Shown: positions 3,455 to 46,281 of the stretch, piece by piece
How positions within the stretch are numbered: position 1 is the stretch's first letter
Layout of the letters: each line of letters starts with the position of its first letter
From: Escherichia coli
Lineage (GTDB): Bacteria > Pseudomonadota > Gammaproteobacteria > Enterobacterales > Enterobacteriaceae
Length of the DNA: 64,000 nt
Direction: 5' to 3' (one strand)
Assembly: GCF_046105845.1 (NCBI RefSeq)
Contig: NZ_CP151004.1
The notes under the pieces: generated by a model
The model's database searches: none
What the model was told of the DNA's origin: nothing
What the model saw: the letters and a program-made list of their open reading frames with translations, nothing else
Program-made: the position numbers and the translations under genes

Positions 3455-3560
3455 ATGCTGGATCCGGCATGAACGCCTTATCCGGCCTACAAAATAGCGC
3501 AAATTCAATATATTGCACCATCTTCCCAGGCCTGATAAGCGTAGCGCATCAGGCAGTCAT
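3455..3560. repeat. REP-type palindromic units in kdpE-pgm spacer
   Basis: ggatccggcatgaacgccttatccggcctac and caggcctgataagcgtagcgcatcaggc, typical REP consensus-like imperfect palindromes. Confidence 0.5.
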
Positions 3561-12587: not shown

Positions 12588-12750
12588 CGTGGATTCCTCA
12601 AAGCGTAAACAACGTATAACGGCGTATGATCTTATAAGCGGGACAGGCTGACAACTGTTAGTTAGTGAAAATCGAAAATCTCACTGAGATTATGGGGATG
12701 ATTGATGAAAAAAAAAGCGGCAGAGAAGATCTCCACCGCTTGTCATTGTT

Positions 12751-25162: not shown

Positions 25163-26203
25163 TTGAACATAGACACTCGCGAAATCACCCTGGAGCCAGC
25201 AGACAACGCGCGTCTGTTGAGCCTGTGCGGCCCGTTTGATGACAACATCAAACAACTCGAACGCCGTCTCGGCATCGAAATCAATCGCCGCGATAACCAC
25301 TTTAAACTGACCGGCCGTCCGATTTGCGTCACCGCTGCGGCAGACATTCTGCGTAGCCTGTATGTCGATACTGCCCCGATGCGCGGTCAGATTCAGGATA
25401 TTGAACCGGAACAGATCCACCTTGCGATTAAAGAAGCGCGGGTACTGGAGCAAAGCGCGGAGAGCGTGCCGGAGTACGGCAAAGCGGTCAATATCAAAAC
25501 CAAACGCGGCGTAATCAAGCCGCGCACGCCAAACCAGGCGCAGTACATCGCCAATATTCTCGACCATGACATTACCTTCGGCGTTGGCCCGGCGGGTACG
25601 GGTAAAACCTACCTGGCAGTGGCTGCAGCAGTTGATGCCCTGGAGCGTCAGGAAATTCGCCGTATTCTGCTGACTCGTCCGGCGGTAGAAGCCGGTGAGA
25701 AACTGGGCTTCCTGCCTGGCGATTTAAGCCAGAAAGTAGATCCGTATCTGCGCCCGCTGTACGACGCGCTGTTTGAAATGCTGGGCTTTGAGAAAGTCGA
25801 GAAACTGATTGAGCGCAACGTTATTGAAGTCGCGCCGCTGGCCTATATGCGTGGCCGTACGCTGAACGACGCGTTTATCATTCTCGATGAAAGCCAGAAC
25901 ACCACCATCGAACAGATGAAGATGTTCCTGACCCGTATCGGTTTTAACTCAAAAGCGGTTATCACCGGCGACGTCACGCAGATCGACCTGCCGCGTAATA
26001 CTAAATCAGGCTTACGTCATGCCATCGAAGTGCTGGCTGACGTCGAAGAGATCAGCTTTAACTTCTTCCACAGCGAAGACGTGGTTCGTCACCCGGTGGT
26101 GGCGCGTATCGTTAACGCTTATGAAGCCTGGGAAGAAGCAGAACAAAAACGTAAAGCGGCGCTGGCAGCAGAACGCAAGCGCGAAGAACAGGAACAAAAA
26201 TGA
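25163..26203 (+). CDS. ybeZ: PhoH-like ATPase YbeZ (346 aa), probable TTG start
   Basis: ORF 25124..26203; TTG at 25163 preceded by AAGAGGA gives (M)[18 protein letters not shown]...; Walker A GPAGTGKT. Confidence 0.9.
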
Positions 26204-26667
26204 GTCAGGTGATCCTCGATTTACAACTGGCATGTGAAGATAATTCCGGGTTACCGGAAGAGAGCCAGTTTCAAACATGGCTGAATGCAGTGATCCCGCA
26301 GTTTCAGGAAGAGTCGGAAGTGACTATTCGCGTGGTCGATACCGCCGAAAGCCACAGTCTGAATCTGACCTATCGCGGTAAGGATAAGCCGACCAACGTG
26401 CTCTCCTTCCCGTTTGAAGTGCCGCCTGGCATGGAAATGTCGCTACTGGGCGATCTGGTTATCTGCCGTCAGGTGGTTGAGAAGGAAGCACAGGAGCAAG
26501 GCAAACCACTGGAGGCGCACTGGGCGCATATGGTGGTGCACGGCAGTCTGCATTTGTTAGGTTACGATCACATCGAAGATGACGAAGCAGAAGAAATGGA
26601 AGCCATCGAAACAGAGATTATGCTTGCTCTGGGCTATGAGGATCCGTACATTGCCGAGAAAGAATAA
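26200..26667 (+). CDS. ybeY: Endoribonuclease YbeY, rRNA maturation factor (155 aa)
   Basis: [27 protein letters not shown]..., HGxLHLxGYDH zinc motif. Confidence 0.95.
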
Positions 26668-26756
26668 TTTGCCAGGCATTTGACTGGCAGACGTCCCCGC
26701 CGTTGGTGATTAACGACGGCGTTTTGATTAACTAACATGAGAACCCATACGACGCC

Positions 26757-27635
26757 ATGAGCGACGACAATTCACACAGTAGTGACACGATAAGCAACAA
26801 GAAGGGATTTTTCTCCCTGTTACTCAGCCAACTTTTCCACGGTGAACCGAAAAACCGTGACGAACTGCTGGCGCTGATCCGTGATTCCGGGCAGAACGAC
26901 CTTATCGACGAAGATACGCGCGATATGCTCGAAGGGGTGATGGACATCGCAGACCAACGCGTCCGCGACATCATGATCCCCCGCTCCCAGATGATTACCC
27001 TGAAACGCAACCAGACGCTGGACGAATGCCTTGATGTCATCATCGAGTCCGCCCACTCACGTTTCCCGGTGATTAGCGAAGACAAAGATCACATTGAAGG
27101 GATTCTGATGGCGAAAGACTTGCTGCCGTTTATGCGCAGCGATGCTGAAGCCTTCAGCATGGACAAAGTGTTACGTCAGGCAGTTGTCGTTCCTGAAAGT
27201 AAGCGCGTAGACCGGATGCTGAAAGAGTTTCGCTCTCAGCGTTACCACATGGCGATCGTCATTGACGAATTCGGTGGGGTTTCCGGTCTGGTGACCATTG
27301 AAGACATCCTGGAACTGATTGTTGGTGAGATTGAAGACGAGTATGACGAAGAAGATGATATCGACTTCCGTCAGCTGAGTCGTCATACCTGGACCGTGCG
27401 CGCACTGGCTTCCATTGAAGACTTCAACGAGGCGTTCGGCACCCACTTTAGCGATGAAGAGGTCGACACTATCGGTGGTCTGGTGATGCAGGCATTTGGG
27501 CATCTTCCGGCGCGTGGTGAAACCATCGACATCGACGGTTACCAGTTCAAAGTGGCGATGGCCGACAGTCGGCGTATTATTCAGGTTCATGTCAAAATTC
27601 CGGATGACTCACCCCAGCCAAAGCTGGATGAATAA
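26757..27635 (+). CDS. corC: CorC/YbeX CBS-domain Mg/Co efflux-associated protein (292 aa)
   Basis: [41 protein letters not shown]..., CBS pair plus CorC_HlyC domain. Confidence 0.93.
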
Positions 27636-27659
27636 AACCGAAACTGGATAGATAACTAC

Positions 27660-29201
27660 ATGGCTTTTGCCTCATTAATTGAACGCCAGCGCATTCGCCT
27701 GCTGCTGGCGTTATTATTCGGTGCCTGCGGAACGCTGGCCTTCTCTCCTTACGATGTCTGGCCTGCGGCGATTATTTCGCTGATGGGGCTTCAGGCGCTG
27801 ACCTTTAACCGCCGTCCACTCCAGTCTGCCGCTATTGGCTTTTGCTGGGGATTTGGCCTCTTTGGCAGCGGTATTAACTGGGTCTATGTCAGCATCGCGA
27901 CTTTTGGCGGAATGCCTGGCCCGGTTAACATCTTCCTGGTGGTGCTGCTGGCGGCGTATTTGTCGCTGTATACCGGACTGTTTGCTGGCGTGCTGTCGCG
28001 CCTGTGGCCGAAAACCACCTGGCTGCGCGTGGCGATTGCCGCCCCTGCTCTCTGGCAAGTGACCGAGTTTCTGCGCGGTTGGGTGCTGACTGGTTTCCCG
28101 TGGTTACAGTTCGGCTATAGCCAGATTGATGGCCCGTTAAAAGGGCTGGCACCAATAATGGGCGTGGAAGCCATTAACTTCCTGCTAATGATGGTTAGCG
28201 GCCTGCTGGCACTGGCGTTGGTCAAACGCAACTGGCGTCCGCTGGCGGTGGCCGTCGTGCTGTTCGCCCTTCCCTTCCCGCTGCGTTACATCCAGTGGTT
28301 TACCCCGCAACCGGAGAAAACCATTCAGGTTTCGATGGTTCAGGGCGATATTCCGCAATCACTGAAATGGGACGGAGACCAGCTTCTTAATACGCTGAAG
28401 ATTTACTACAACGCAACGGCACCGCTGATGGGCAAATCATCGTTGATTATCTGGCCGGAGTCGGCGATAACCGATCTGGAAATTAATCAGCAACCGTTCC
28501 TCAAAGCACTGGACGGTGAGTTGCGCGATAAAGGTAGCTCGCTGGTAACCGGGATTGTTGACGCGCGTCTCAATAAGCAGAACCGCTACGATACTTACAA
28601 CACCATCATCACGCTGGGGAAAGGTGCGCCGTACAGCTACGAATCAGCCGATCGCTATAACAAAAACCATCTGGTGCCGTTTGGCGAGTTTGTCCCGCTG
28701 GAGTCGATTCTGCGTCCGTTAGCGCCGTTCTTTGATCTGCCGATGTCGTCGTTCAGCCGTGGGCCATATATCCAGCCACCGCTGTCGGTAAACGGTATTG
28801 AGCTTACTGCGGCTATTTGCTACGAGATCATTCTCGGCGAGCAAGTGCGTGATAACTTCCGCCCGGATACCGATTATCTGCTGACTATCTCCAACGATGC
28901 ATGGTTTGGTAAGTCTATTGGTCCATGGCAGCACTTCCAGATGGCGCGAATGCGTGCGCTGGAGTTGGCGCGCCCGCTACTGCGTAGCACCAACAACGGC
29001 ATTACGGCGGTGATTGGTCCGCAGGGTGAGATTCAGGCGATGATCCCGCAATTCACCCGCGAGGTGTTAACCACTAACGTGACGCCGACTACCGGACTTA
29101 CACCGTACGCACGTACCGGCAACTGGCCTCTGTGGGTGCTGACGGCACTGTTTGGTTTTGCTGCTGTGCTGATGAGTCTGCGTCAGCGACGTAAACGTTG
29201 A
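27660..29201 (+). CDS. lnt: Apolipoprotein N-acyltransferase Lnt (about 512 aa)
   Basis: [37 protein letters not shown]..., multi-TM N-terminus, CN-hydrolase domain. Confidence 0.95.
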
Positions 29202-29214
29202 GGTGAATGATGCG

Positions 29215-29249
29215 CTGGCCTGCAAAATTGCATCATTTTTGCAGGCCAG
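29215..29249. repeat. Perfect 13-bp inverted repeat just downstream of lnt
   Basis: CTGGCCTGCAAAA-ttgcatca-TTTTGCAGGCCAG; no U-tract on either strand. Confidence 0.6.
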
Positions 29250-29304
29250 ATAAACCGTTAACACCGCATCCGGTATCAACAAAACATACTTTCTCATTAA
29301 GCGG

Positions 29305-29332
29305 TGGGGCGTGATTATCATGCCCCTTTTTT
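29305..29332 (+). terminator. Rho-independent terminator (plus-strand orientation) abutting the stop of the minus-strand rhomboid gene
   Basis: GGGGCgtgattatcatGCCCCtttttt. Confidence 0.55.
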
Positions 29333-29333
29333 C

Positions 29334-31211
29334 TTACGGTTCAGGGATACAAGCCACATTGCCATATTGGGGATGACGAATAATTGCCTGCGGATCAAGC
29401 GAGCGCGTCCTGTCCAGTTGGATTAACCCGTTCTTCGCCATAACAAATATTTTTCTACCATCCGCTGAAAAACGAAGGTGATTAACGTAGCTGGCAGGAT
29501 AAACGCCAATAATCTGCCCGGCATTAATATTGAGCTGGATGACATAACCTTGCAGGCCATATGACACCAACGCTAAATATTGACCGTCCGGGCTAATACC
29601 CTCAACGGAATAAACGCTCCTGCTACACCATTGCGTCATAATACTGGCTTGTTGATCCTCAGCTCTTATACGTGAAATCCCCTGGCTATCGGCAAAAATA
29701 ATCTCTCCATTTTTTGGTCGGAATCCCATCGCAGAAACGACACCACGCGCATCACCTGCGGGAAAGTCTTCTTTCTGATGCGTGATGGTATTGATGCGTA
29801 CAATGTCACCTCTGACCATACCGGGTATCAACAATGTTTTTTCATCCGGGGAAAGTGCCATAACCCAGGCACCAGGTTTATTACTCGTCCCCGTCCCGTC
29901 GTATTTCTCCAGCGGGATATCCGCCACATGCTGATAAGTCACCAGATCAATGGCTGACACACTATTACTGGTGCGATTCATCACCCAAGCTTTTGTGCCA
30001 TCACGCGAGAGGATAAGACTGTCAGGATGTGCACCGGTGGTAATCGACTGAATAATCTCCCCCGTCGCCACGTTAATGACCGATAACGCATTCGCTTCAA
30101 ATGAAGTCGCATAAAGCAACGTTTCATCCGGGCTTAGCGCCAGCGATCTGACGCCCTGATCTTTACAGCCACCACAATGTTTGACTGACTTTTCTTTCGC
30201 TATGGGGGCTGTAAAGGTATGCAGGATTTTCTTTTGTCCGAGGTCGAAAACAACAATGCTGTTGGTGTTTTCAATTGCGGCATACAACGTATTACCATCC
30301 CGACTGATCGCCATATCATGGATATCGGAAATCTCAGCGAGCAAATCACCACTGGCCTGTTCACGACTTACCGGAGCGGATAATGTTTCCCTGAGGGCGT
30401 TGCGTTCCTCCGCTAACTGCTGCTTTTTTTGCCGTCGCTCTTGTTCAATCTCCTGTGGATAAAACTCTTCACGCAGGCTTTGCCTGACTTGTAAAACTGA
30501 CTCACCCATCTGCTGCTGCGCAAGCCAGATAGCCCCGGTCAGAAGAAGACTACCCGCAACAATAATCCCGCCTTCCGTAACAAGCCGGTTTTGCCCATAT
30601 AAACGCGCACTCAGCCCCCCCATCGCGCCACCCGCAATCAGGCCGCCAATGTGGCAAGCGTTATCTATTCCTGTTTGCCGGGCACCGTACAACAGTGTCA
30701 GCGCCACCATACCCAGCAGAGGAAATACTCGCCGCTGGTTTTTATGGTGTGTGCCCGCACCTGAAGCAAGCTGTGTTGCTATCGCAGCGCCAGCTATTCC
30801 CATAATCGCCCCGGATGCCCCAACGCTGATGACTATCTGCTCACTTTCGCGTAACGCATAACAGGCACTGATTAGCCCACCAAAGACGCCGGAGAATAAC
30901 CAGATAATCAGAAGTCGCCATTTCCCCAGTATCCGCTCCGCCACTGCCCCCACCACCAGAAGTGCAAACATATTCATCAGCAAATGGGGAAAACTACTGT
31001 GCAGAAAGACACTGCTCAATAAGCGCCAGGATTCGCCCGACAACGTGAGAGAAGTAACGTTAGCACCGAGATGGATGAGTGCGGATTGATCGACTTCTTC
31101 ATAACTCATCCATTGTGCGAGGTAACAAAATATCCCAACACAGAGCGCAAAAAGGATAAGGGTTATTGCGGGTAATTGAACATTTAACGGCTTAACCGAA
31201 GATGCAGACAT
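29334..31211 (-). CDS. Rhomboid-family intramembrane serine protease (7 TM) fused via a charged linker to a C-terminal YVTN/YncE-like beta-propeller (625 aa); not a gene I recognise from E. coli K-12
   Basis: Single 625-codon ORF. N-terminal residues 1-235: rhomboid motifs WR (62-63), HxxxN (H76, N80), GASG with catalytic Ser133, ACHIGG with His187, plus seventh hydrophobic helix 216-232. Residues 240-285 charged (EEFYPQEIEQERRQKKQQLAEERNALRE). Residues 286-625: about seven repeats of [LI]S[PR]DG..[LI]...N......[IV]D-type beta-strand blades. Confidence 0.85.
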   Translation of the reverse strand: MSASSVKPLNVQLPAITLILFALCVGIFCYLAQWMSYEEVDQSALIHLGANVTSLTLSGESWRLLSSVFLHSSFPHLLMNMFALLVVGAVAERILGKWRLLIIWLFSGVFGGLISACYALRESEQIVISVGASGAIMGIAGAAIATQLASGAGTHHKNQRRVFPLLGMVALTLLYGARQTGIDNACHIGGLIAGGAMGGLSARLYGQNRLVTEGGIIVAGSLLLTGAIWLAQQQMGESVLQVRQSLREEFYPQEIEQERRQKKQQLAEERNALRETLSAPVSREQASGDLLAEISDIHDMAISRDGNTLYAAIENTNSIVVFDLGQKKILHTFTAPIAKEKSVKHCGGCKDQGVRSLALSPDETLLYATSFEANALSVINVATGEIIQSITTGAHPDSLILSRDGTKAWVMNRTSNSVSAIDLVTYQHVADIPLEKYDGTGTSNKPGAWVMALSPDEKTLLIPGMVRGDIVRINTITHQKEDFPAGDARGVVSAMGFRPKNGEIIFADSQGISRIRAEDQQASIMTQWCSRSVYSVEGISPDGQYLALVSYGLQGYVIQLNINAGQIIGVYPASYVNHLRFSADGRKIFVMAKNGLIQLDRTRSLDPQAIIRHPQYGNVACIPEP

Positions 31212-31368
31212 AAGGTGTTTCTTCCTTGAAAAGACAGGTAAAAAGCATTTTTCCCGTGTGCAGTTATCATCCCGGCAAACGTCCCATGCCGAAAAGATAA
31301 CTCTGTCCGAAATATGACTTTTTCAGCCTAAAATTACAATCGTAATTAATTCATCCCTAAGTATTTTT

Positions 31369-31384
31369 TGGCATGTAAGTTGCT
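31369..31384 (+). promoter_or_regulatory. Candidate sigma54 (-24/-12) promoter directed toward gltI
   Basis: TGGCATgtaagTTGCT: GG and GC elements at the consensus spacing of TGGCACG-N4-TTGCA. Confidence 0.4.
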
Positions 31385-31451
31385 TTATTTACTGTGTAAG
31401 CAATGAAATCAGCCGCGACGCAACCGGGTTGCACCACCACAAATCAGCGGT

Positions 31452-31468
31452 AGCACCAAAAAGGTGCA
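31452..31468. promoter_or_regulatory. Candidate NtrC (GlnG) enhancer site in the rhomboid-gltI divergent region
   Basis: aGCACCAaaaaGGTGCA matches TGCACCA-N3-TGGTGCA at 15 of 17 positions; further GCACC/GGTGC half-sites at 31430-31436 and 31491-31496. Confidence 0.45.
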
Positions 31469-31665
31469 GTTTAAGAATTTTGCTTCGGAATGGTGCGGCG
31501 CAACTCGCAAAAACAAACAATAAAACAGCAATATCTTTACATTTAGCCAAACTAAATGTTACCTAACAGGCACAACACTGCACAATAAAGTTGCAGACGA
31601 TAACAACACAAACACTCACAACGGGTATCCATGCGTTCTTAACGCAGAAGATAAAGGAGTTGGAT

Positions 31666-32574
31666 ATGCAATTACGTAAACCTGCCACAGCAATCCTGGC
31701 CCTGGCGCTTTCCGCAGGACTGGCACAGGCAGATGACGCCGCCCCGGCAGCGGGCAGTACGCTGGACAAAATCGCCAAAAACGGTGTGATTGTCGTCGGT
31801 CACCGTGAATCTTCAGTACCTTTCTCTTATTACGACAATCAGCAAAAAGTGGTGGGTTACTCGCAGGATTACTCCAACGCCATTGTTGAAGCAGTGAAAA
31901 AGAAACTCAACAAACCAGACTTGCAGGTGAAACTGATTCCGATCACCTCACAAAACCGTATTCCACTGCTGCAAAACGGCACTTTCGATTTTGAATGTGG
32001 TTCTACCACCAACAACGTCGAACGCCAAAAACAGGCGGCTTTCTCTGACACTATTTTCGTGGTCGGTACGCGCCTGTTGACCAAAAAGGGTGGCGATATC
32101 AAAGATTTCGCCGATCTGAAAGGCAAAGCCGTAGTCGTCACTTCCGGCACTACCTCTGAAGTTTTGCTCAACAAACTGAATGAAGAGCAAAAAATGAATA
32201 TGCGAATTATCAGCGCCAAAGATCACGGTGACTCTTTCCGCACCCTGGAAAGCGGTCGTGCCGTTGCCTTTATGATGGATGATGCTCTGCTGGCTGGTGA
32301 ACGTGCGAAAGCGAAGAAACCAGACAACTGGGAAATCGTCGGCAAGCCGCAGTCTCAGGAAGCCTACGGTTGTATGTTGCGTAAAGACGATCCGCAGTTC
32401 AAAAAGCTGATGGATGACACTATCGCTCAGGTGCAGACCTCCGGTGAAGCGGAAAAATGGTTTGATAAATGGTTCAAAAATCCCATTCCGCCGAAAAACC
32501 TGAACATGAATTTCGAACTGTCGGACGAAATGAAAGCACTGTTCAAAGAACCGAATGACAAAGCACTGAACTAA
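31666..32574 (+). CDS. gltI: Glutamate/aspartate ABC transporter periplasmic binding protein GltI (302 aa)
   Basis: ORF 31591..32574; ATG 31666 preceded by AAGGAG gives MQLRKPATAILALALSAGLAQA... signal peptide. Confidence 0.95.
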   Translation: MQLRKPATAILALALSAGLAQADDAAPAAGSTLDKIAKNGVIVVGHRESSVPFSYYDNQQKVVGYSQDYSNAIVEAVKKKLNKPDLQVKLIPITSQNRIPLLQNGTFDFECGSTTNNVERQKQAAFSDTIFVVGTRLLTKKGGDIKDFADLKGKAVVVTSGTTSEVLLNKLNEEQKMNMRIISAKDHGDSFRTLESGRAVAFMMDDALLAGERAKAKKPDNWEIVGKPQSQEAYGCMLRKDDPQFKKLMDDTIAQVQTSGEAEKWFDKWFKNPIPPKNLNMNFELSDEMKALFKEPNDKALN

Positions 32575-32577
32575 TTA

Positions 32578-32731
32578 CAAGAACCAGGGGCGGAAATTCC
32601 AGCCCTCTCGATTGTTACGTAGCACGGACAGACTATACGCCTGATGGTCGTTCCCCATCGGGCCTGAAAACCGCAATACGCTGGGTAACAATCTTCGAGG
32701 GTAGCAGTTAACGCTGCTACCCTCTTTTTTC
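32578..32731 (+). ncRNA. sroC: SroC sRNA (GcvB sponge) processed from the gltI-gltJ spacer
   Basis: Conserved gltI-gltJ intergenic region ending in terminator GGGTAGCAGttaacGCTGCTACCCtctttttt; position matches the known SroC locus. Confidence 0.6.
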
Positions 32732-32743
32732 TGGAGTAGATTT

Positions 32744-33484
32744 ATGTCTATAGACTGGAACTGGGGTATTTTTTTACAACAAGCCCCGTTCGGCAACACC
32801 ACCTATCTTGGTTGGATCTGGAGTGGTTTTCAGGTCACGATCGCTTTGTCGATCTGCGCCTGGATTATCGCTTTCCTCGTCGGTTCATTTTTCGGCATTT
32901 TACGTACCGTTCCAAACCGTTTTCTCTCCGGTCTGGGTACGTTGTATGTCGAACTGTTCCGCAACGTGCCGTTGATTGTGCAATTCTTTACCTGGTATCT
33001 GGTGATCCCGGAGCTGCTGCCGGAGAAAATCGGCATGTGGTTTAAGGCCGAGCTGGATCCCAATATTCAGTTTTTCCTTTCATCCATGCTCTGCCTGGGG
33101 CTGTTTACCGCCGCCCGTGTTTGCGAACAGGTACGCGCCGCGATCCAGTCGCTGCCGCGTGGGCAGAAGAATGCCGCGCTGGCGATGGGTCTGACGCTGC
33201 CGCAGGCTTACCGCTATGTACTGTTGCCTAATGCTTATCGCGTTATCGTCCCGCCGATGACCTCCGAGATGATGAACCTGGTGAAAAACTCCGCCATCGC
33301 CTCGACCATCGGTCTGGTGGATATGGCGGCGCAGGCGGGTAAATTGCTCGACTACTCGGCCCACGCCTGGGAGTCGTTTACCGCCATCACGCTGGCGTAT
33401 GTGTTGATTAACGCGGTTATCATGCTGGTAATGACGCTGGTTGAACGTAAAGTTCGCCTGCCCGGCAACATGGGGGGCAAATAA
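32744..33484 (+). CDS. gltJ: Glutamate/aspartate ABC transporter permease GltJ (246 aa)
   Basis: [35 protein letters not shown]..., polar amino-acid permease family. Confidence 0.95.
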
Positions 33485-34158
33485 TGTACGAGTTTGACTG
33501 GAGTTCCATTGTCCCTTCCCTGCCATATCTGCTCGACGGGCTGGTGATCACCCTGAAAATCACCGTCACGGCAGTCGTGATTGGTATTTTGTGGGGCACC
33601 ATGCTGGCGGTGATGCGCTTGTCCAGCTTTGCGCCCGTAGCGTGGTTTGCCAAAGCCTACGTTAACGTATTCCGCTCGATTCCTTTAGTTATGGTTTTGC
33701 TGTGGTTTTACCTGATTGTGCCGGGTTTTCTGCAAAACGTGCTGGGATTATCGCCAAAAAATGATATCCGTTTAATTTCGGCGATGGTGGCGTTTTCGAT
33801 GTTTGAAGCGGCCTACTATTCAGAGATTATCCGCGCCGGTATTCAAAGTATTTCTCGTGGTCAGTCGAGCGCCGCGCTGGCGTTGGGGATGACTCACTGG
33901 CAGTCGATGAAACTGATTATTCTGCCGCAGGCGTTCCGCGCGATGGTGCCGCTGCTGCTCACTCAGGGCATCGTACTGTTCCAGGATACCTCACTGGTGT
34001 ATGTGTTATCTCTGGCCGATTTCTTCCGTACCGCCTCAACCATTGGTGAGCGTGATGGTACGCAGGTTGAGATGATCCTGTTTGCCGGATTTGTTTATTT
34101 CGTTATTAGCCTTAGCGCATCGTTGTTGGTCAGCTACTTGAAAAGAAGGACAGCATAA
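33484..34158 (+). CDS. gltK: Glutamate/aspartate ABC transporter permease GltK (224 aa)
   Basis: [31 protein letters not shown]...; start overlaps gltJ stop (TAATG). Confidence 0.95.
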
Positions 34159-34883
34159 TGATTACCCTGAAAAATGTTTCAAAATGGTATGGTCACTTTC
34201 AGGTGCTGACCGACTGCTCAACCGAAGTGAAAAAAGGCGAAGTGGTGGTGGTTTGCGGCCCGTCTGGTTCCGGCAAATCAACGCTGATTAAAACCGTCAA
34301 CGGCCTCGAACCGGTGCAGCAAGGTGAAATCACCGTCGATGGCATCGTGGTTAACGACAAGAAAACCGATCTGGCAAAGCTGCGTTCCCGCGTCGGGATG
34401 GTGTTCCAGCATTTCGAGTTGTTCCCCCATTTGTCGATTATTGAAAACCTGACCCTGGCGCAGGTGAAAGTGCTTAAACGCGATAAAGCACCCGCTCGTG
34501 AAAAAGCATTGAAATTGCTGGAGCGCGTCGGGCTTTCCGCACATGCCAATAAGTTTCCGGCGCAGCTTTCCGGCGGTCAGCAGCAGCGTGTGGCGATCGC
34601 TCGCGCATTGTGCATGGATCCTATCGCGATGCTGTTCGACGAACCGACATCGGCGCTGGATCCGGAGATGATCAACGAAGTGCTGGACGTGATGGTGGAA
34701 CTGGCGAACGAAGGAATGACCATGATGGTGGTGACCCACGAAATGGGCTTTGCCCGTAAAGTGGCGAATCGGGTGATCTTTATGGACGAGGGTAAAATTG
34801 TCGAAGACTCGCCGAAAGACGCTTTCTTCGATGATCCGAAATCGGACCGCGCAAAAGACTTCCTCGCGAAAATCCTGCATTAA
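34158..34883 (+). CDS. gltL: Glutamate/aspartate ABC transporter ATP-binding protein GltL (241 aa)
   Basis: [45 protein letters not shown]..., Walker A, LSGGQQQR signature. Confidence 0.95.
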
Positions 34884-35000
34884 TCACTCTGGCGCGCATA
34901 CCCAATTGCGCGCCATCTCACGCTTTATCGTTTCGCCCCTCGTATCTGTTACATCCTGGCGTTACCCTTGTCGCAAAGAAGCACACAACAAGGAGCAACA

Positions 35001-35936
35001 ATGGCACTGCCAATTCTGTTAGATTGCGACCCAGGTCATGACGACGCTATCGCAATAGTTCTCGCCCTCGCCTCACCAGAGCTTGATGTCAAAGCAATTA
35101 CGTCTTCCGCCGGAAACCAGACACCAGAAAAAACCTTACGCAATGTTCTGCGTATGCTGACCTTGCTTAATCGCACCGATATTCCGGTAGCAGGCGGCGC
35201 GGTAAAACCGTTAATGCGTGAGTTGATTATCGCGGACAATGTGCACGGCGAAAGCGGTCTCGACGGCCCGGCATTACCGGAACCGACGTTCGCACCGCAA
35301 AACTGTACGGCGGTAGAGCTGATGGCGAAAACACTACGTGAAAGTGCGGAACCTGTCACGATTGTTTCTACCGGACCGCAAACTAACGTTGCCTTGCTGC
35401 TCAATAGCCACCCGGAACTGCATAGCAAAATTGCCCGTATCGTGATTATGGGCGGTGCAATGGGGCTTGGTAACTGGACGCCTGCGGCTGAATTTAATAT
35501 TTACGTTGACCCGGAAGCGGCAGAAATTGTCTTCCAGTCAGGGATCCCGGTGGTGATGGCCGGTCTGGATGTTACTCACAAAGCACAAATTCACGTTGAG
35601 GACACCGAGCGTTTCCGCGCCATTGGCAACCCTGTTTCAACCATTGTTGCCGAACTGCTGGATTTCTTCCTCGAATATCATAAAGACGAAAAATGGGGCT
35701 TTGTCGGCGCACCGCTGCATGACCCATGCACCATCGCCTGGCTGTTAAAACCGGAGTTGTTTACCACTGTTGAGCGCTGGGTTGGCGTGGAAACACAAGG
35801 GAAATATACCCAGGGTATGACGGTTGTTGATTATTATTATCTGACCGGCAATAAACCGAATGCTACTGTAATGGTCGATGTTGATCGTCAGGGCTTTGTT
35901 GATTTACTGGCTGATCGTCTGAAATTTTACGCTTAA
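35001..35936 (+). CDS. rihA: Pyrimidine-specific ribonucleoside hydrolase RihA (311 aa)
   Basis: ORF 34968..35936; ATG 35001 gives [22 protein letters not shown]..., DxDxxxDD nucleoside hydrolase motif. Confidence 0.95.
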
Positions 35937-35942
35937 TCACTC

Positions 35943-35967
35943 GCCGGATGACATCACGCCATCCGGC
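35943..35967. repeat. Short REP-like hairpin in the 44-bp rihA-ybeL spacer
   Basis: GCCGGATGacatcacgcCATCCGGC. Confidence 0.4.
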
Positions 35968-35980
35968 ACCACTCATTTCA

Positions 35981-36463
35981 TTAAGGCTCGAACGGGCGTC
36001 TCTGGAACTGGTCATGACCACATTTCGGGCATAGCGTCAGCACTTCCGGTGTATAGATCGGGAGATGGAAATGACATTTCTCGCAGACCAGATTTCCCAG
36101 CCCTACCACTTCTCCGCTGTGATAAACCCCGTGATGATTGAGGTCCTGGAAAACTTCGCGCCATTCAAGCTGCGTTTTATCGGTGATGTCTGCCAGCTCC
36201 TGCCACAAGCTTTCTTTAATCACCCGCATAAAGACGCTGTCAGACTCTTCTTTCAGGCTCTCTTCATAGCTCATGGCGAACTCTTCCAGGTCACGTCTGA
36301 CAGCTCGCGTCAGCTCATCGACTTCGGTTCGCGTTAACTCCCCTGTTTTTATTACGCGCTCGCGCGCCTGTTCCACCAGTGCGTCGATATCACGTTCGCC
36401 ATTGCGCAGGCGTTCGCTCAGTGACGCGACCAGTTCACGGTAATATTGAGCAACCTTGTTCAT
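35981..36463 (-). CDS. ybeL: DUF1451 zinc-ribbon protein YbeL (160 aa)
   Basis: ORF MNKVAQYYRELVASLSERLRNGERDIDALVEQ..., C-terminal CxxC...CPxCG. Confidence 0.9.
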   Translation of the reverse strand: MNKVAQYYRELVASLSERLRNGERDIDALVEQARERVIKTGELTRTEVDELTRAVRRDLEEFAMSYEESLKEESDSVFMRVIKESLWQELADITDKTQLEWREVFQDLNHHGVYHSGEVVGLGNLVCEKCHFHLPIYTPEVLTLCPKCGHDQFQRRPFEP

Positions 36464-36698
36464 CGTTTCATCTCCCGGGTCGTTAACTGACTATAATAAT
36501 AGACGTTCTTTGTTCCTTGCTTTGCTAATACGCCCACAAACTCTGTAAATTAATGTATGAATAATCCGAGCATCATTTCAACGTCGAGTGCGCGAAAGGC
36601 TGTTTTGACGCGGACGTTTGGGCTATGCTATGCGGATCTGAAAAACCACCTCAAACGCTACTTTTGTAGCCGTAATGAAAACAGGACCACTGGCTGCC

Positions 36699-39281
36699 AT
36701 GCAAGAGCAATACCGCCCGGAAGAGATAGAATCCAAAGTACAGCTTCATTGGGATGAGAAGCGCACATTTGAAGTAACCGAAGACGAGAGCAAAGAGAAG
36801 TATTACTGCCTGTCTATGCTTCCCTATCCTTCTGGTCGACTACACATGGGCCACGTACGTAACTACACCATCGGTGACGTGATCGCCCGCTACCAGCGTA
36901 TGCTGGGCAAAAACGTCCTGCAGCCGATCGGCTGGGACGCGTTTGGTCTGCCTGCGGAAGGCGCGGCGGTGAAAAACAACACCGCACCGGCACCGTGGAC
37001 GTACGACAACATCGCGTACATGAAAAACCAGCTCAAAATGCTGGGCTTTGGTTATGACTGGAGCCGCGAGCTGGCAACCTGTACACCGGAATACTACCGT
37101 TGGGAACAGAAATTCTTCACCGAGCTGTATAAAAAAGGCCTGGTATATAAGAAGACTTCTGCAGTCAACTGGTGCCCGAACGACCAGACCGTACTGGCGA
37201 ACGAACAAGTTATCGACGGCTGCTGCTGGCGCTGCGATACCAAAGTTGAGCGTAAAGAGATCCCGCAATGGTTTATCAAAATCACTGCTTACGCTGACGA
37301 GCTGCTCAACGATCTGGATAAACTGGATCACTGGCCAGACACCGTTAAAACCATGCAGCGTAACTGGATTGGTCGTTCCGAAGGCGTAGAAATCACTTTC
37401 AACGTTAACGACTATGACAACACGCTGACCGTTTACACTACCCGTCCGGACACCTTTATGGGTTGTACCTACCTGGCGGTAGCGGCAGGTCATCCGCTGG
37501 CACAGAAAGCGGCGGAAAATAATCCTGAACTGGCCGCCTTTATTGACGAATGCCGTAACACCAAAGTTGCCGAAGCTGAAATGGCGACGATGGAGAAAAA
37601 AGGCGTCGATACTGGCTTTAAAGCGGTTCACCCATTAACGGGCGAAGAAATTCCCGTTTGGGCAGCAAACTTCGTATTGATGGAATACGGCACGGGCGCA
37701 GTTATGGCGGTTCCGGGCCACGACCAGCGCGACTACGAGTTTGCCTCTAAATACGGCCTGAATATCAAACCGGTTATCCTGGCAGCTGACGGCTCTGAGC
37801 CAGATCTTTCTCAGCAAGCCCTGACTGAAAAAGGCGTGCTGTTCAACTCTGGCGAGTTCAACGGTCTTGACCATGAAGCGGCCTTCAACGCTATCGCCGA
37901 TAAACTGACTGCGATGGGCGTTGGCGAGCGTAAAGTGAACTACCGCCTGCGCGACTGGGGTGTTTCCCGTCAACGTTACTGGGGCGCGCCGATTCCGATG
38001 GTGACGCTGGAAGACGGTACCGTAATGCCGACCCCGGACGACCAGCTGCCGGTGATCCTGCCGGAAGATGTGGTGATGGACGGCATTACCAGCCCGATTA
38101 AAGCAGATCCGGAGTGGGCAAAAACTACCGTTAACGGTATGCCAGCGCTGCGTGAAACCGACACTTTCGACACCTTTATGGAGTCCTCCTGGTACTATGC
38201 GCGCTACACTTGCCCGGAGTACAAAGAAGGTATGCTGGATTCCAAAGCGGCTAACTACTGGCTGCCGGTGGATATCTACATTGGTGGTATCGAACACGCC
38301 ATTATGCACCTGCTCTACTTCCGCTTCTTCCACAAACTGATGCGTGATGCAGGCATGGTGAACTCTGACGAACCAGCGAAACAGTTGCTGTGTCAGGGTA
38401 TGGTGCTGGCAGATGCCTTCTACTATGTTGGCGAAAACGGCGAACGTAACTGGGTTTCCCCGGTTGATGCTATCGTTGAACGTGACGAGAAAGGCCGTAT
38501 CGTGAAAGCGAAAGATGCGGCAGGCCATGAACTGGTTTATACCGGCATGAGCAAAATGTCCAAGTCGAAGAACAACGGTATCGACCCGCAGGTGATGGTT
38601 GAACGTTACGGCGCGGACACCGTTCGTCTGTTTATGATGTTTGCTTCTCCGGCTGATATGACTCTCGAATGGCAGGAATCCGGCGTGGAAGGGGCTAACC
38701 GCTTCCTGAAACGTGTCTGGAAACTGGTTTACGAGCACACAGCGAAAGGTGATGTTGCGGCACTGAACGTTGATGCGCTGACTGAAGATCAGAAAGCGCT
38801 GCGTCGCGATGTGCATAAAACGATCGCTAAAGTGACCGATGATATCGGCCGTCGTCAGACCTTCAACACCGCAATTGCGGCGATTATGGAGCTGATGAAC
38901 AAACTGGCGAAAGCACCGACCGATGGCGAGCAGGACCGCGCCCTGATGCAGGAAGCGCTGCTGGCGGTAGTCCGTATGCTTAACCCGTTCACCCCGCACA
39001 TCTGCTTCACGCTGTGGCAGGAACTGAAAGGCGAAGGCGATATCGACAACGCACCGTGGCCGGTTGCTGACGAAAAAGCGATGGTGGAAGACTCCACGCT
39101 GGTCGTGGTGCAGGTTAACGGTAAAGTCCGTGCAAAAATCACCGTTCCGGTGGACGCAACGGAAGAACAGGTTCGCGAACGTGCTGGCCAGGAACATCTG
39201 GTAGCAAAATATCTTGATGGCGTTACCGTGCGTAAAGTGATTTACGTACCCGGTAAACTCCTCAATCTGGTCGTTGGCTAA
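36699..39281 (+). CDS. leuS: Leucyl-tRNA synthetase (860 aa)
   Basis: ORF 36675..39281; ATG 36699 gives [56 protein letters not shown]..., HMGH and KMSKS motifs. Confidence 0.97.
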
Positions 39282-39295
39282 GCGCGGGAGGAAGC

Positions 39296-39877
39296 GTGCG
39301 ATATCTGGCAACATTGTTGTTATCTCTGGCGGTGTTAATCACCGCCGGGTGTGGCTGGCATCTGCGTGATACCACGCAGGTTCCTTCCACTATGAAGGTC
39401 ATGATCCTGGACTCAGGCGATCCGAACGGGCCATTAAGCCGTGCGGTGCGTAACCAGTTACGTCTGAATGGTGTCGAGTTGCTTGATAAAGAAACCACGC
39501 GTAAGGACGTTCCATCCCTGCGTTTGGGTAAAGTGAGCATCGCGAAAGATACCGCATCGGTATTCCGTAACGGTCAAACAGCAGAGTATCAGATGATCAT
39601 GACGGTCAATGCGACCGTGTTGATCCCCGGCCGTGACATCTACCCGATTAGCGCCAAAGTCTTCCGTTCGTTCTTCGATAACCCGCAAATGGCGTTAGCG
39701 AAAGATAACGAACAAGACATGATCGTAAAAGAGATGTACGACCGTGCTGCCGAACAGCTGATTCGTAAGCTGCCAAGCATCCGTGCTGCGGATATTCGTT
39801 CCGACGAAGAACAGACGTCGACCACAACGGATACTCCGGCAACGCCTGCACGCGTCTCTACCACGCTGGGTAACTGA
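39296..39877 (+). CDS. lptE: LPS assembly lipoprotein LptE (193 aa), GTG start
   Basis: [26 protein letters not shown]..., lipobox ITAGC; immediately downstream of leuS. Confidence 0.93.
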
Positions 39878-40908
39878 TGATTCGGTTGTACCCGGAACAA
39901 CTCCGCGCGCAGCTCAATGAAGGGCTGCGCGCGGCGTATCTTTTACTTGGTAACGATCCTCTGTTATTGCAGGAAAGCCAGGACGCTATTCGTCAGGTAG
40001 CTACGGTACAAGGATTCGAAGAACACCACACTTTTTCCATTGATCCCAACACTGACTGGAATGCGATCTTTTCGTTATGCCAGGCCATGAGTCTGTTTGC
40101 CAGTCGACAAACGCTATTGCTGTTGTTACCAGAAAACGGACCGAATGCGGCGATCAATGAACAACTTCTCACACTCACCGGACTTCTGCATGACGACCTG
40201 CTGTTGATCGTCCGCGGTAATAAATTAAGCAAAGCGCAAGAAAATGCCGCCTGGTTTACTGCTCTTGCGAATCGCAGCGTGCAGGTGACCTGTCAGACAC
40301 CGGAGCAGGCTCAGCTTCCCCGCTGGGTTGCTGCGCGCGCAAAACAGCTCAACTTAGAACTGGATGACGCGGCGAATCAGGTGCTCTGCTACTGTTATGA
40401 AGGTAACCTGCTGGCGCTGGCTCAGGCACTGGAGCGTTTATCGCTACTCTGGCCAGACGGCAAACTGACATTACCTCGCGTTGAACAGGCGGTGAATGAT
40501 GCCGCGCATTTCACCCCTTTTCATTGGGTTGATGCTTTGTTGATGGGAAAAAGTAAGCGCGCGTTGCATATTCTTCAGCAACTGCGTCTGGAAGGCAGCG
40601 AACCGGTTATTTTGTTGCGCACATTACAACGTGAACTGTTGTTACTGGTTAACCTGAAACGCCAGTCTGCCCATACGCCACTGCGTGCGTTGTTTGATAA
40701 GCATCGGGTATGGCAGAACCGCCGGGGCATGCTGGGCGAGGCGTTAAATCGCTTAAGCCAGCCGCAGTTACGTCAGGCCGTGCAACTCCTGACACGAACG
40801 GAACTCACCCTCAAACAAGATTACGGTCAGTCAGTGTGGGCAGAGCTGGAAGGGTTATCTCTTCTGTTATGCCATAAACCCCTGGCGGACGTATTTATCG
40901 ACGGTTGA
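39877..40908 (+). CDS. holA: DNA polymerase III delta subunit HolA (343 aa)
   Basis: [43 protein letters not shown]... Confidence 0.95.
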
Positions 40909-40909
40909 T

Positions 40910-41551
40910 ATGAAATCTTTACAGGCTCTGTTTGGTGGCACCTTTGATCCGGTGCACTATGGTCATCTTAAACCCGTGGAAACGCTGGCGAATTTGATTG
41001 GTCTGACGCGGGTCACAATCATCCCTAATAATGTTCCTCCGCATCGTCCCCAGCCGGAAGCGAACAGCGTACAGCGTAAACACATGCTTGAACTGGCGAT
41101 TGCCGACAAGCCATTATTTACTCTTGATGAACGCGAGCTAAAGCGCAATGCCCCCTCTTACACTGCGCAAACACTGAAAGAGTGGCGGCAGGAACAAGGG
41201 CCGGACGTGCCGCTGGCGTTTATTATTGGTCAGGATTCACTGCTGACCTTTCCGACCTGGTACGAATACGAAACGATACTCGACAATGCACATTTGATCG
41301 TCTGTCGGCGTCCAGGTTACCCACTTGAAATGGCGCAACCGCAATACCAGCAATGGCTGGAAGATCATTTGACACATAACCCGGAAGATCTTCACCTTCA
41401 GCCTGCCGGTAAAATTTATCTGGCTGAAACGCCGTGGTTTAACATCTCCGCGACCATCATCCGCGAACGTTTGCAAAACGGTGAATCGTGTGAGGATTTA
41501 TTGCCGGAACCGGTACTGACTTACATTAACCAACAAGGCTTGTATCGCTGA
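40910..41551 (+). CDS. nadD: Nicotinate-nucleotide adenylyltransferase NadD (213 aa)
   Basis: [35 protein letters not shown]..., GGxFxPxHxGH motif. Confidence 0.95.
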
Positions 41552-41574
41552 TACCTGTCGTTACGGAGGGCATG

Positions 41575-42186
41575 ATGCGACTGTGGTTAATTCGTCATGG
41601 TGAAACGCAAGCGAATATCGATGGTCTTTACAGCGGTCATGCGCCCACCCCCCTGACTGCGCGCGGTATTGAGCAAGCGCAAAATCTGCATACGCTGCTA
41701 CATGGTGTTTCCTTTGACCTGGTTTTATGCAGTGAACTGGAACGGGCACAGCATACCGCGCGACGGGTTCTCAGTGACCGCCAGCTCCCCGTGCAAATCA
41801 TCCCTGAACTCAACGAAATGTTTTTTGGCGACTGGGAGATGCGACATCATCGCGACCTCATGCAAGAAGATGCCGAAAACTATAGCGCGTGGTGCAATGA
41901 CTGGCAGCATGCTATCCCCACGAACGGTGAAGGATTTCAGGCATTTTCACAACGTGTGGAACGGTTTATCGCAAGGCTTAGTGAATTTCAGCACTATCAG
42001 AATATTTTAGTCGTCAGCCATCAGGGTGTACTGAGTCTGTTAATCGCCCGTTTAATTGGTATGCCTGCCGAAGCTATGTGGCATTTTCGCGTTGACCAGG
42101 GGTGTTGGAGCGCCATTGATATCAACCAAAAATTCGCGACGCTACGCGTCCTCAATAGCCGTGCCATCGGGGTCGAGAATGCATGA
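41575..42186 (+). CDS. cobC: Alpha-ribazole phosphatase / phosphoglycerate-mutase family protein CobC (203 aa)
   Basis: ORF 41572..42186, MRLWLIRHGETQANIDGLYSGH..., RHG histidine phosphatase motif. Confidence 0.9.
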   Translation: MRLWLIRHGETQANIDGLYSGHAPTPLTARGIEQAQNLHTLLHGVSFDLVLCSELERAQHTARRVLSDRQLPVQIIPELNEMFFGDWEMRHHRDLMQEDAENYSAWCNDWQHAIPTNGEGFQAFSQRVERFIARLSEFQHYQNILVVSHQGVLSLLIARLIGMPAEAMWHFRVDQGCWSAIDINQKFATLRVLNSRAIGVENA

Positions 42187-42427
42187 CTTTTCTGTTTTTT
42201 TACGGGTAAGCCGCAACGACCATTGACAGCCCTGGGCAGGCTGATATTCTCCGCAGCCAGACTTTTTTCGCCAGACACGACTTTGTAGAAATTGTTTTAC
42301 AAAAATGGCGATGCAATCTGCGGCGCGGGGTGGGATGATAGCCCACTTTCGAAAGCCGATTCGGCGACAATTGTCCCGAAATCGCCTCTGGTTCAGGTAT
42401 ACTGACAGACCATTTTTATCTATTTGA

Positions 42428-42763
<336 letters not shown>

Positions 42764-42766
42764 TGC

Positions 42767-43234
42767 GTGAAGCTGCAACTTGTCGCCGTGGGAACGAAAA
42801 TGCCGGACTGGGTACAAACTGGTTTTACCGAGTACCTGCGTCGTTTTCCGAAAGATATGCCCTTCGAGCTGATTGAAATTCCGGCCGGAAAACGCGGCAA
42901 GAATGCGGACATCAAGCGCATACTCGACAAAGAGGGTGAGCAGATGTTGGCGGCCGCAGGCAAAAACCGCATTGTCACCCTCGATATTCCAGGCAAGCCC
43001 TGGGATACGCCGCAGTTAGCCGCTGAGCTGGAACGCTGGAAGCTGGATGGTCGCGACGTCAGTCTACTGATTGGCGGGCCTGAAGGGTTGTCGCCTGCCT
43101 GTAAAGCGGCGGCTGAGCAGAGCTGGTCGCTGTCGGCGCTTACCCTCCCCCATCCGCTGGTTCGCGTGCTGGTCGCAGAGAGTCTGTACCGGGCGTGGAG
43201 CATCACCACCAACCATCCTTATCACCGTGAGTGA
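42767..43234 (+). CDS. rlmH: 23S rRNA m3Psi1915 methyltransferase RlmH (155 aa), GTG start
   Basis: [48 protein letters not shown]... Confidence 0.93.
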
Positions 43235-43264
43235 TAAGGGAGCTTTGAGTAGAAAACGCAGCGG

Positions 43265-45166
43265 ATGAAACTACAGAACTCTTTTCGCGACTATACGGCA
43301 GAGTCCGCGCTGTTTGTGCGCCGGGCGCTGGTCGCCTTTTTGGGGATTTTGCTGCTGACCGGCGTGCTTATCGCCAACCTGTATAATCTGCAAATTGTTC
43401 GCTTTACCGATTACCAGACCCGCTCTAATGAAAACCGCATTAAGCTGGTGCCTATCGCGCCCAGCCGCGGCATTATCTACGACCGTAACGGTATCCCTCT
43501 GGCCCTCAACCGCACTATCTACCAGATAGAAATGATGCCGGAGAAAGTCGATAACGTGCAGCAAACGCTGGACGCTTTGCGCAGCGTGGTAGATCTGACC
43601 GATGACGATATTGCTGCATTCCGAAAAGAGCGCGCACGTTCACACCGTTTCACCTCTATTCCGGTGAAAACTAACCTGACCGAAGTACAAGTAGCTCGCT
43701 TTGCCGTCAATCAGTACCGTTTTCCGGGTGTTGAAGTTAAAGGCTATAAACGTCGTTACTATCCTTACGGTTCGGCGTTGACCCACGTCATCGGCTATGT
43801 GTCGAAAATCAACGATAAAGACGTCGAACGCCTGAATAATGACGGCAAACTGGCCAACTATGCGGCAACGCATGATATAGGTAAGCTGGGCATTGAGCGT
43901 TACTATGAAGACGTGCTGCACGGTCAGACTGGTTATGAAGAGGTTGAAGTTAACAACCGTGGGCGTGTTATCCGCCAGTTAAAAGAAGTACCACCGCAAG
44001 CCGGACACGATATTTACCTGACGCTGGATCTCAAACTCCAGCAATATATTGAAACGCTGCTGGCGGGTAGCCGCGCAGCGGTGGTAGTCACCGATCCGCG
44101 TACAGGTGGGGTGCTGGCGCTGGTTTCCACGCCTAGTTATGACCCAAACCTATTTGTTGACGGTATCTCCAGCAAAGATTATTCCGCCTTGCTGAACGAC
44201 CCGAATACACCGCTGGTGAACCGCGCCACACAGGGGGTTTATCCTCCCGCGTCTACAGTTAAACCCTATGTGGCGGTTTCGGCATTGAGCGCCGGAGTGA
44301 TCACGCGCAATACGACGCTGTTTGACCCAGGCTGGTGGCAACTGCCAGGTTCGGAAAAACGTTATCGTGACTGGAAAAAATGGGGCCACGGGCGTCTGAA
44401 TGTCACAAGGTCGCTGGAAGAATCTGCGGATACCTTCTTCTATCAGGTGGCCTACGATATGGGAATCGATCGCCTCTCCGAATGGATGGGTAAATTCGGT
44501 TATGGTCATTACACCGGTATCGACCTGGCGGAAGAACGTTCCGGCAACATGCCTACCCGCGAATGGAAACAGAAACGCTTTAAAAAACCGTGGTATCAGG
44601 GTGACACCATTCCGGTTGGTATCGGTCAGGGTTACTGGACAGCGACCCCAATCCAGATGAGTAAGGCACTGATGATCCTGATTAATGACGGTATCGTGAA
44701 GGTTCCGCATTTGCTGATGAGCACCGCCGAAGACGGCAAACAGGTGCCATGGGTACAACCGCATGAACCGCCCGTCGGCGATATTCATTCCGGTTACTGG
44801 GAGCTGGCAAAAGACGGTATGTACGGTGTTGCTAACCGCCCTAACGGTACGGCGCATAAATACTTTGCCAGCGCACCGTACAAAATTGCGGCGAAATCTG
44901 GTACAGCTCAGGTCTTCGGTCTGAAAGCGAACGAAACCTATAATGCGCACAAAATTGCCGAGCGTTTACGTGACCACAAACTGATGACCGCCTTTGCGCC
45001 ATACAACAATCCGCAAGTCGCTGTCGCCATGATTCTGGAGAACGGCGGTGCGGGTCCGGCGGTTGGTACGCTGATGCGCCAGATCCTCGACCACATTATG
45101 CTGGGTGATAACAACACCGATCTGCCTGCGGAAAATCCAGCGGTTGCCGCAGCGGAGGACCATTAA
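43265..45166 (+). CDS. mrdA: Penicillin-binding protein 2 (633 aa)
   Basis: [36 protein letters not shown]..., STVK, SGN and KSGT transpeptidase motifs. Confidence 0.97.
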
Positions 45167-45168
45167 TC

Positions 45169-46281
45169 ATGACGGATAATCCGAATAAAAAAACATTCTG
45201 GGATAAAGTCCATCTCGATCCCACAATGCTGCTGATCTTACTGGCATTGCTGGTTTACAGCGCCCTGGTTATCTGGAGCGCCAGCGGTCAGGATATTGGC
45301 ATGATGGAGCGTAAAATCGGCCAAATCGCGATGGGCCTGGTCATCATGGTGGTGATGGCGCAAATTCCTCCACGCGTTTATGAAGGCTGGGCCCCCTATC
45401 TCTATATCATCTGTATTATTTTGCTGGTGGCGGTAGATGCTTTTGGTGCCATCTCTAAAGGCGCTCAACGCTGGCTGGACCTCGGTATTGTTCGTTTTCA
45501 GCCGTCGGAAATTGCCAAAATAGCCGTGCCACTGATGGTTGCGCGCTTTATCAACCGCGACGTTTGCCCGCCATCGTTGAAGAACACTGGCATCGCGCTG
45601 GTGCTGATATTTATGCCCACGCTGCTGGTGGCTGCACAGCCTGACCTGGGAACATCAATCCTCGTTGCGCTTTCCGGTCTGTTTGTACTGTTCCTCTCTG
45701 GCCTTAGCTGGCGTCTGATTGGCGTCGCAGTAGTGCTGGTGGCGGCGTTCATTCCTATTCTGTGGTTCTTCCTGATGCATGATTACCAGCGCCAGCGCGT
45801 AATGATGCTCCTGGACCCGGAATCAGACCCACTCGGCGCGGGCTATCATATTATTCAGTCTAAAATTGCTATTGGCTCCGGCGGATTACGCGGCAAAGGC
45901 TGGCTGCACGGTACTCAGTCACAGCTTGAATTTCTCCCCGAACGCCATACCGACTTTATCTTCGCGGTACTGGCGGAAGAGCTGGGATTAGTGGGCATTT
46001 TGATTCTGCTCGCTCTTTACATTCTGCTAATCATGCGCGGGCTGTGGATAGCCGCCAGAGCGCAAACCACCTTTGGTCGCGTCATGGCTGGCGGCTTAAT
46101 GCTGATATTATTCGTTTATGTCTTCGTAAATATTGGTATGGTAAGCGGTATTCTGCCGGTTGTAGGGGTTCCGCTCCCACTGGTCAGTTATGGAGGATCG
46201 GCGCTAATTGTGCTGATGGCTGGGTTCGGGATTGTAATGTCAATCCACACCCACAGGAAAATGTTGTCGAAAAGCGTGTAA
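45169..46281 (+). CDS. mrdB: Peptidoglycan glycosyltransferase RodA (SEDS family, 370 aa)
   Basis: [45 protein letters not shown]... Confidence 0.97.

Follow-up and report, generated by a model that had tools for sequence, protein, structure and literature searches.

An island-free ybeL-rihA junction with a REP-type hairpin in Escherichia coli, the probable ancestral-type allele of an insertion hotspot

The convergent genes rihA and ybeL are only 44 bp apart in the stretch of Escherichia coli DNA analysed here (64,000 nucleotides, hereafter the window), and the spacer between them contains a REP-type hairpin; in strain K-12, the same two genes are separated by a seven-gene block encoding, among others, the Hsp70 homologue HscC. 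We consider it probable, at about 0.85, that the junction of the window is the ancestral-type, island-free allele of the site, and that the HscC block is a later insertion within Escherichia which replaced the spacer.

Anatomy of the junction

The features of the site are collected in Table 1. The stop codon of rihA (TAA) occupies positions 35934-35936 and that of ybeL (TTA on the + strand) positions 35981-35983. An earlier note on this DNA, made from the sequence alone, had described two convergent genes separated by 44 bp, and the sequence and the list of open reading frames bear this out. The identity of both genes was confirmed by tblastn (99% identity with K-12 RihA, 100% with K-12 YbeL) and by their presence in the matching RefSeq annotations.

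Table 1. Features of the ybeL-rihA site in the window and inserts found at the same site in other genera; coordinates are those of the window or of the locus named
Feature	Sequence	Coordinates	Strand	Description	Basis
rihA	window	35001..35936	+	pyrimidine-specific ribonucleoside hydrolase, 311 aa; its 3' end is the left border of the site	ORF list
intergenic spacer	window	35937..35980	.	44 bp, TCACTCGCCGGATGACATCACGCCATCCGGCACCACTCATTTCA; island-free ('empty') allele of the ybeL-rihA hotspot	
REP-type palindrome	window	35943..35967	.	GCCGGATG-ACATCACGC-CATCCGGC, the middle being N9	
ybeL	window	35981..36463	-	DUF1451/zinc-ribbon protein, 160 aa; its 3' end is the right border of the site	ORF list
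insert	Citrobacter sp. MGH106, L014	10552..16827		chaperone-usher fimbrial operon (usher/PapD)	Pfam
insert	Citrobacter sp. Cu233, L018	10536..18736		ORF layout as in L014	ORF layout only
insert	Leclercia, L048	10559..13917		two-partner-secretion (TPS) pair: TPS exoprotein and ShlB-type transporter	
insert	Klebsiella oxytoca, L069	10838..14350		ShlB-type partner confirmed	
inserts	Silvania, a second Leclercia and K. grimontii (L053, L055, L077)			similar two-gene inserts	size/layout only
insert	Enterobacter quasihormaechei, L032	5849..7363		Hcp gene	

The gene order of K-12, as given in the earlier note, matches the annotation of NC_000913.3: leuS, ybeL, ybeQ, ybeR, djlB, ybeT, ybeU, djlC, hscC, rihA and gltL, with a distance of 7,976 bp between the ybeL and rihA stop codons. 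When the seven K-12 proteins of the block were used as tblastn queries, none had a match within the 64-kb window; the absence of the ybeQ-ybeR-djlB-ybeT-ybeU-djlC-hscC island at this locus, as previously claimed, was thus confirmed.

The hairpin of the spacer

REPs are scattered over the genome in numerous copies; they are typically extragenic, at 3' ends or between convergent genes, and their consensus head and tail are GCC(G/T)GATG ... (C/T)ATC(C/A)GGC. The spacer does contain the one REP-like hairpin that had been noticed in it. Like REP and BIME elements, this hairpin is extragenic and situated between convergent genes, its whole length falling between the two stop codons, and its arms, arranged as GCCGGATG-N9-CATCCGGC, match the head and tail consensus. 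That pattern had a single match in the 64-kb window and none in 100 shuffles. Two differences from REP and BIME elements were observed. The tetranucleotide GTAG/CTAC, which is the context recognized by RAYT, is absent beside the hairpin (the flanks are CACTC/GCCGG on one side and CCGGC/ACCAC on the other), whereas it is present in orthologous Citrobacter spacers, for example GTAGGCCGGATAAG in loci L008, L019 and L020. In addition, the hairpin is a nearly perfect palindrome, when REPs are usually imperfect ones. Its appearance is that of an eroded or simplified REP. The sole other REP-like palindrome of the window, GCCTGATGCGCTACGCTTATCAGGC (3530..3554, - strand), lies immediately 3' of a hairpin with a T-run; it has the same 25-nt core as the hairpin of the spacer.

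The predicted folding energy of the hairpin depends on the strand considered. On the + strand (rihA-sense RNA) it is of -14.8 kcal/mol (z of -3.1), versus -21.8 kcal/mol on the - strand (ybeL-sense RNA), where two mismatches become G-U pairs; the stem is then of 11 pairs, including the two G-U, and extends over positions 35942..35968. The stem is 6 nt away from the rihA stop codon and 13 nt away from that of ybeL. A promoter and terminator scan found no intrinsic terminator on either strand between positions 35700 and 36700: a stem is present in the spacer, but it is not followed by a T-run on either strand. The hairpin does not correspond to a curated RNA family either, since an Rfam scan of positions 34000..38000 gave no match at E<=1.

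REP stem-loops shield upstream mRNA from 3' exonucleases and, with a stop codon no more than about 15 nt away, can impede terminating ribosomes. An RNA-level role of the spacer hairpin in the rihA and ybeL transcripts can be predicted on these grounds. It would constitute a 3'-end structure shared by both converging transcripts, and might block 3' exonucleases or aid termination, although it is no canonical U-tract terminator. An attenuating effect on translation termination, of the kind reported for REPs, may be added to this, both stop codons being within 15 nt of the hairpin.

Distribution of the empty junction among E. coli genomes

The distribution of the two arrangements was determined in a set of 5,426 complete RefSeq genomes of E. 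coli. A query of 1,027 bp spanning the junction was found in contiguous form, i.e. with an empty junction, in 964 genomes (about 18%); in nearly all the others, rihA and ybeL gave two separate matches. DNA from hscC was detected in 4,410 genomes. The 44-bp spacer alone was present in 882 genomes (572 with an identical copy and 310 with one mismatch), always on the chromosome and always as one copy, a count which applies to the whole spacer and not to its 25-nt core. A chimeric query made of the spacer and of hscC identified 5,292 genomes, which is the sum of 882 and 4,410: the overlap between the two groups is zero.

The earlier note had envisaged that the island could be present elsewhere in the same genome. 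Since not one of the 882 spacer-containing genomes of the set has hscC, the island has not moved elsewhere in the empty-site strains. The proposal that the locus is a strain-variable island site agrees well with the above counts (964 empty junctions and 4,410 genomes with hscC among 5,426) and, as detailed further on, it holds at the level of the family too. A more trivial explanation of the compact junction would be an assembly artefact, that is a collapsed or mis-joined contig hiding the island. It can practically be discarded, given that 964 complete genomes, those of CFT073 and CFSAN018748 among them, have the identical junction, which is also found in independent draft and metagenome assemblies.

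Strain CFT073 (NC_004431.1), which we take to belong to phylogroup B2, is a good illustration of the empty state. Its ybeL and rihA genes are located at 715009-715491 and 715536-716471, respectively, without hscC block, and the order of the genes around the junction (lptE-leuS / ybeL / rihA-gltLKJI) is the same as in the window. The CFT073 spacer consists of the 44 bp of the window, hairpin included, except for one A>G change just after the stem. The flanking genes of CFT073 are 97.2-98.5% identical to those of the window, and the flanks of the window are 97.5-98.5% identical to those of K-12; the window is therefore about as far from one as from the other. For a larger segment of the window (26000..46000), the best 20-kb match among the 5,426 complete genomes was AST215, at 99.0%, which makes the source strain unusually distant; the next-best matches, including PCN033 and an O7:H15 strain named ST70, were at 98.3-98.5%.

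Within Escherichia, the empty alleles are of two types. The 44-bp type is that of the window, CFT073 and others; the 39-bp type is that of E. coli PCP06171 and of SCPM-O-B-8794, a lineage sharing ~95% identity with E. coli. In the shorter spacer, the 10-bp stem is made perfect again by a C>T change: the hairpin is thus kept across divergent empty alleles. In neighbour-joining trees of the flanks, the empty alleles fall in at least three haplogroups, which indicates that they do not constitute one recent deletion clone.

An intermediate form of the island was also encountered. In locus L089 (GCA_017320025.1, 10484..15652), the island is reduced to one module, with a 72-aa Sel1 fragment followed by ybeT-ybeU-djlC-hscC. 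This form is common, since 44 similar places were found besides L089, and it looks like the product of recombination between the two duplicated Sel1/DUF1266/J-domain modules of the island. In the neighbour-joining trees, the flanks of L089 group inside the CFT073 flank group; this, together with the distribution of the empty alleles over at least three haplogroups, indicates a mosaic history of the locus.

The HscC island of K-12

The K-12 island is composed of two Sel1/DUF1266/J-domain modules and of the gene for the Hsp70 homologue HscC. Its G+C content, 46.9%, is below that of the flanking genes (50-53%) and of the window (51.5%), and this atypical base composition is one of the marks by which regions of genome plasticity are recognized. 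HscC is a non-essential, specialized Hsp70 with DjlB and DjlC as partners; it has been connected with tolerance to Cd2+ and UV, it is below proteomic detection during exponential growth, and its distribution is sporadic, having probably spread through horizontal transfer (PMC8215388). Such a description fits that of a dispensable insert of lower G+C content. It is this HscC-DjlB/DjlC system which, when compared with K-12, is the cargo missing from the window: the window strain is simply without a dispensable accessory chaperone module.

As for previous work, a search of the literature on the presence/absence polymorphism of hscC, or on the Sel1/DUF1266/J-domain/Hsp70 module, returned a general Hsp70 review only, and no paper on the ybeL-rihA locus. 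The possibility that the island is a known anti-phage system was considered as well: PADLOC, run on the seven K-12 proteins, gave only weak matches of the two Sel1-repeat proteins to PtuA, which were not convincing and were rejected.

Which allele came first

The orthologous loci of other species were obtained by scanning species-representative genomes with YbeL, which provided 80 loci (E. albertii and E. fergusonii not being among them) on which the K-12 proteins were mapped. The full seven-gene HscC block was found in three Escherichia lineages only, namely sp. E1V33, E. whittamii and sp. MOD1-EC7003, and at the same site as in K-12. The island of Escherichia sp. MOD1-EC7003 is an enlarged version, with an extra 2.5 kb between ybeL and ybeQ (L006, 10484..12996); one part of this segment has 27-30% identity with DjlB/DjlC, and two ORFs of ~320 aa, without Pfam match, are also found in it.

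Elsewhere in the family, ybeL adjoins rihA in many species of Citrobacter and in Salmonella enterica subsp. arizonae, Pseudocitrobacter, Phytobacter, Kluyvera, Enterobacter, Lelliottia and Trabulsiella; in the outgroup loci without rihA, ybeL adjoins gltL. The outgroup spacers range from 0 to 226 bp and most of them contain palindromic repeats. Those of Citrobacter and Salmonella arizonae carry full REPs or REP pairs, and the 35-bp spacer of Citrobacter sp. FP75, TGAATTGCCGGATGGCGATACCATCCGGCACAAAA, has essentially the architecture of that of the window. The position of the repeat is also shared: the distance between the end of the REP arm CATCCGGC and the ybeL stop codon is 6-9 nt in 11 loci (Citrobacter, Salmonella arizonae and Pseudocitrobacter), 13 nt in the window and 8 nt, as read from its sequence, in the 39-bp Escherichia allele.

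The spacer was also compared with the island. The intergenic sequences at the two ends of the island are 83 bp and 69 bp long, and the match of the spacer to both is at chance level: among 200 shuffles, 114 reached the observed score for the rihA-side end, 46 for the ybeL-side end and 71 for the whole island. The ends of the island have neither direct nor inverted terminal repeats. More generally, the search for att-like repeats, for terminal repeats of the island and for island remnants within the spacer gave nothing above chance. What would be expected of an excision scar or of an attB site was not seen, in that there are no attL/attR-like repeats of the spacer at the ends of the island, and no mobility gene; neither integrase nor IS is annotated within the K-12 island. 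From the adjacency of ybeL and rihA in the outgroups, the position of the REP arm and this lack of island similarity and of terminal repeats, we conclude that the compact junction is probably of ancestral type, with the hairpin as a resident REP.

The opposite scheme, in which an ancestor carried the HscC island and later lost it, would make of the 44-bp hairpin spacer an excision scar; the earlier note had likewise suggested that the hairpin may be the scar of the empty site. An island-bearing ancestor is conceivable, the island being present in most E. coli and, at the same site, in three non-coli Escherichia, and partial loss does occur, as exemplified by the one-module version of L089, whose flanks group with those of CFT073. 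Loss, however, cannot recreate a spacer like that of the outgroups, where the same REP arm is found a few bases from the ybeL stop codon in Citrobacter, Salmonella arizonae and Pseudocitrobacter. Moreover, the similarity between spacer and island, including its 83-bp and 69-bp ends, does not exceed chance, and the K-12 island has no terminal repeats, integrase or IS. The empty alleles are furthermore diverse, with a 44-bp and a 39-bp type and at least three flank haplotypes, one lineage being ~95% identical to E. coli. We regard a secondary deletion as unlikely, and the suggestion of a scar as unsupported, given the occurrence of REP-type palindromes between adjacent ybeL and rihA genes in the outgroups, the chance-level similarity to the island and the lack of terminal repeats.

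The favoured course of events, with the compact junction first, would be the following. In the Enterobacteriaceae, ybeL and rihA would have been neighbouring convergent genes with a short spacer, containing a palindromic repeat in most of the genera sampled. In Escherichia, the 8-kb block of lower G+C content would have inserted here, taking the place of the whole spacer from one stop codon to the other. Both alleles would have persisted afterwards, and CFT073 and the window strain would still have the initial spacer, REP-derived hairpin included. That the island was gained within Escherichia, and not lost, is what we infer from the comparisons above, and two points can be raised against it. 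Because the island exists in E. whittamii, sp. E1V33 and sp. MOD1-EC7003, it could be older than E. coli, which would make the empty allele of E. coli an old retained polymorphism or the result of re-import by homologous recombination. Also, REPs being mobile, an arm at the same position in several genera might be due to repeated colonization instead of descent.

A hotspot common to the family

Unrelated cargo occupies the same site in related taxa (Table 1), as in regions of genome plasticity, and so does the presence/absence polymorphism seen in E. coli lie between conserved core genes: the site downstream of ybeL is a general, family-wide hotspot. It resembles chromosomal integration hotspots by this polymorphism between fixed core flanks, by the atypical composition of its cargo and by the presence of other cargo in other genera. 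It differs from them in that no tRNA, integrase, IS or direct repeat is found at the borders of the K-12 island, which is thus unlike a classical integrative island.

Could the REP itself be the target? The spacer would then be a landing pad where the REP hairpin directs insertion, by transposition or recombination, and this would explain the varied cargo across genera. It is true that the HscC block, the fimbrial operon, the TPS/ShlB pairs and the Hcp gene are all at the same ybeL-downstream site, and that most of the empty versions contain palindromic repeats. Against this, the occupied loci have generally lost the REP altogether instead of showing it split or duplicated, and no target-site duplications, transposase or integrase genes were seen at their borders. 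In the cargo-bearing loci of other genera, a split REP was generally not found at the borders, which leaves REP-specific targeting unsupported. Besides, spacers between convergent genes tolerate insertion anyway, so that no specific mechanism is needed. Targeting by the REP hairpin therefore appears very unlikely. A more elaborate version, in which a REP landing pad conserved across the Enterobacteriaceae is consumed upon insertion and the two alleles of Escherichia are maintained as an old balanced polymorphism rather than by neutral gain and loss, is to our eyes quite unlikely.

Two other variable sites were noticed in the window. The first is 4 kb away from the ybeL-rihA junction, between lnt and gltI (intergenic region ~29196..31561), where a 625-aa ORF is present on the - strand (29334..31211). 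According to the annotation of CFT073, the counterpart of this ORF there is a rhomboid-family intramembrane serine protease; Pfam adds only faint beta-propeller matches. The lnt-gltI site contains the 625-aa gene in CFT073 and in the window, IS5D in K-12 and nothing in CFSAN018748. The second is the nagE-glnS junction, compact in the window (12671..12710) and occupied in CFT073 by a ~9.1-kb cluster which includes genes for an SLC13 permease, a sialidase-family protein and a D-threonate kinase.

Significance

To conclude, the island-free junction is an ordinary difference between strains, and published genomes already show it. About one in five sequenced E. coli, the long-published CFT073 among them, are like this strain in lacking the non-essential HscC/DjlB/DjlC system. 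What the comparison with other genera corrects is the direction of change: the compact, hairpin-bearing junction is probably the original state and the K-12 arrangement the derived one. If the latter is derived, K-12 is the wrong reference for calling the state of the window a 'deletion'. As an illustration of a family-wide hotspot for insertions between convergent core genes, the ybeL-rihA site could be useful, being small and clean.
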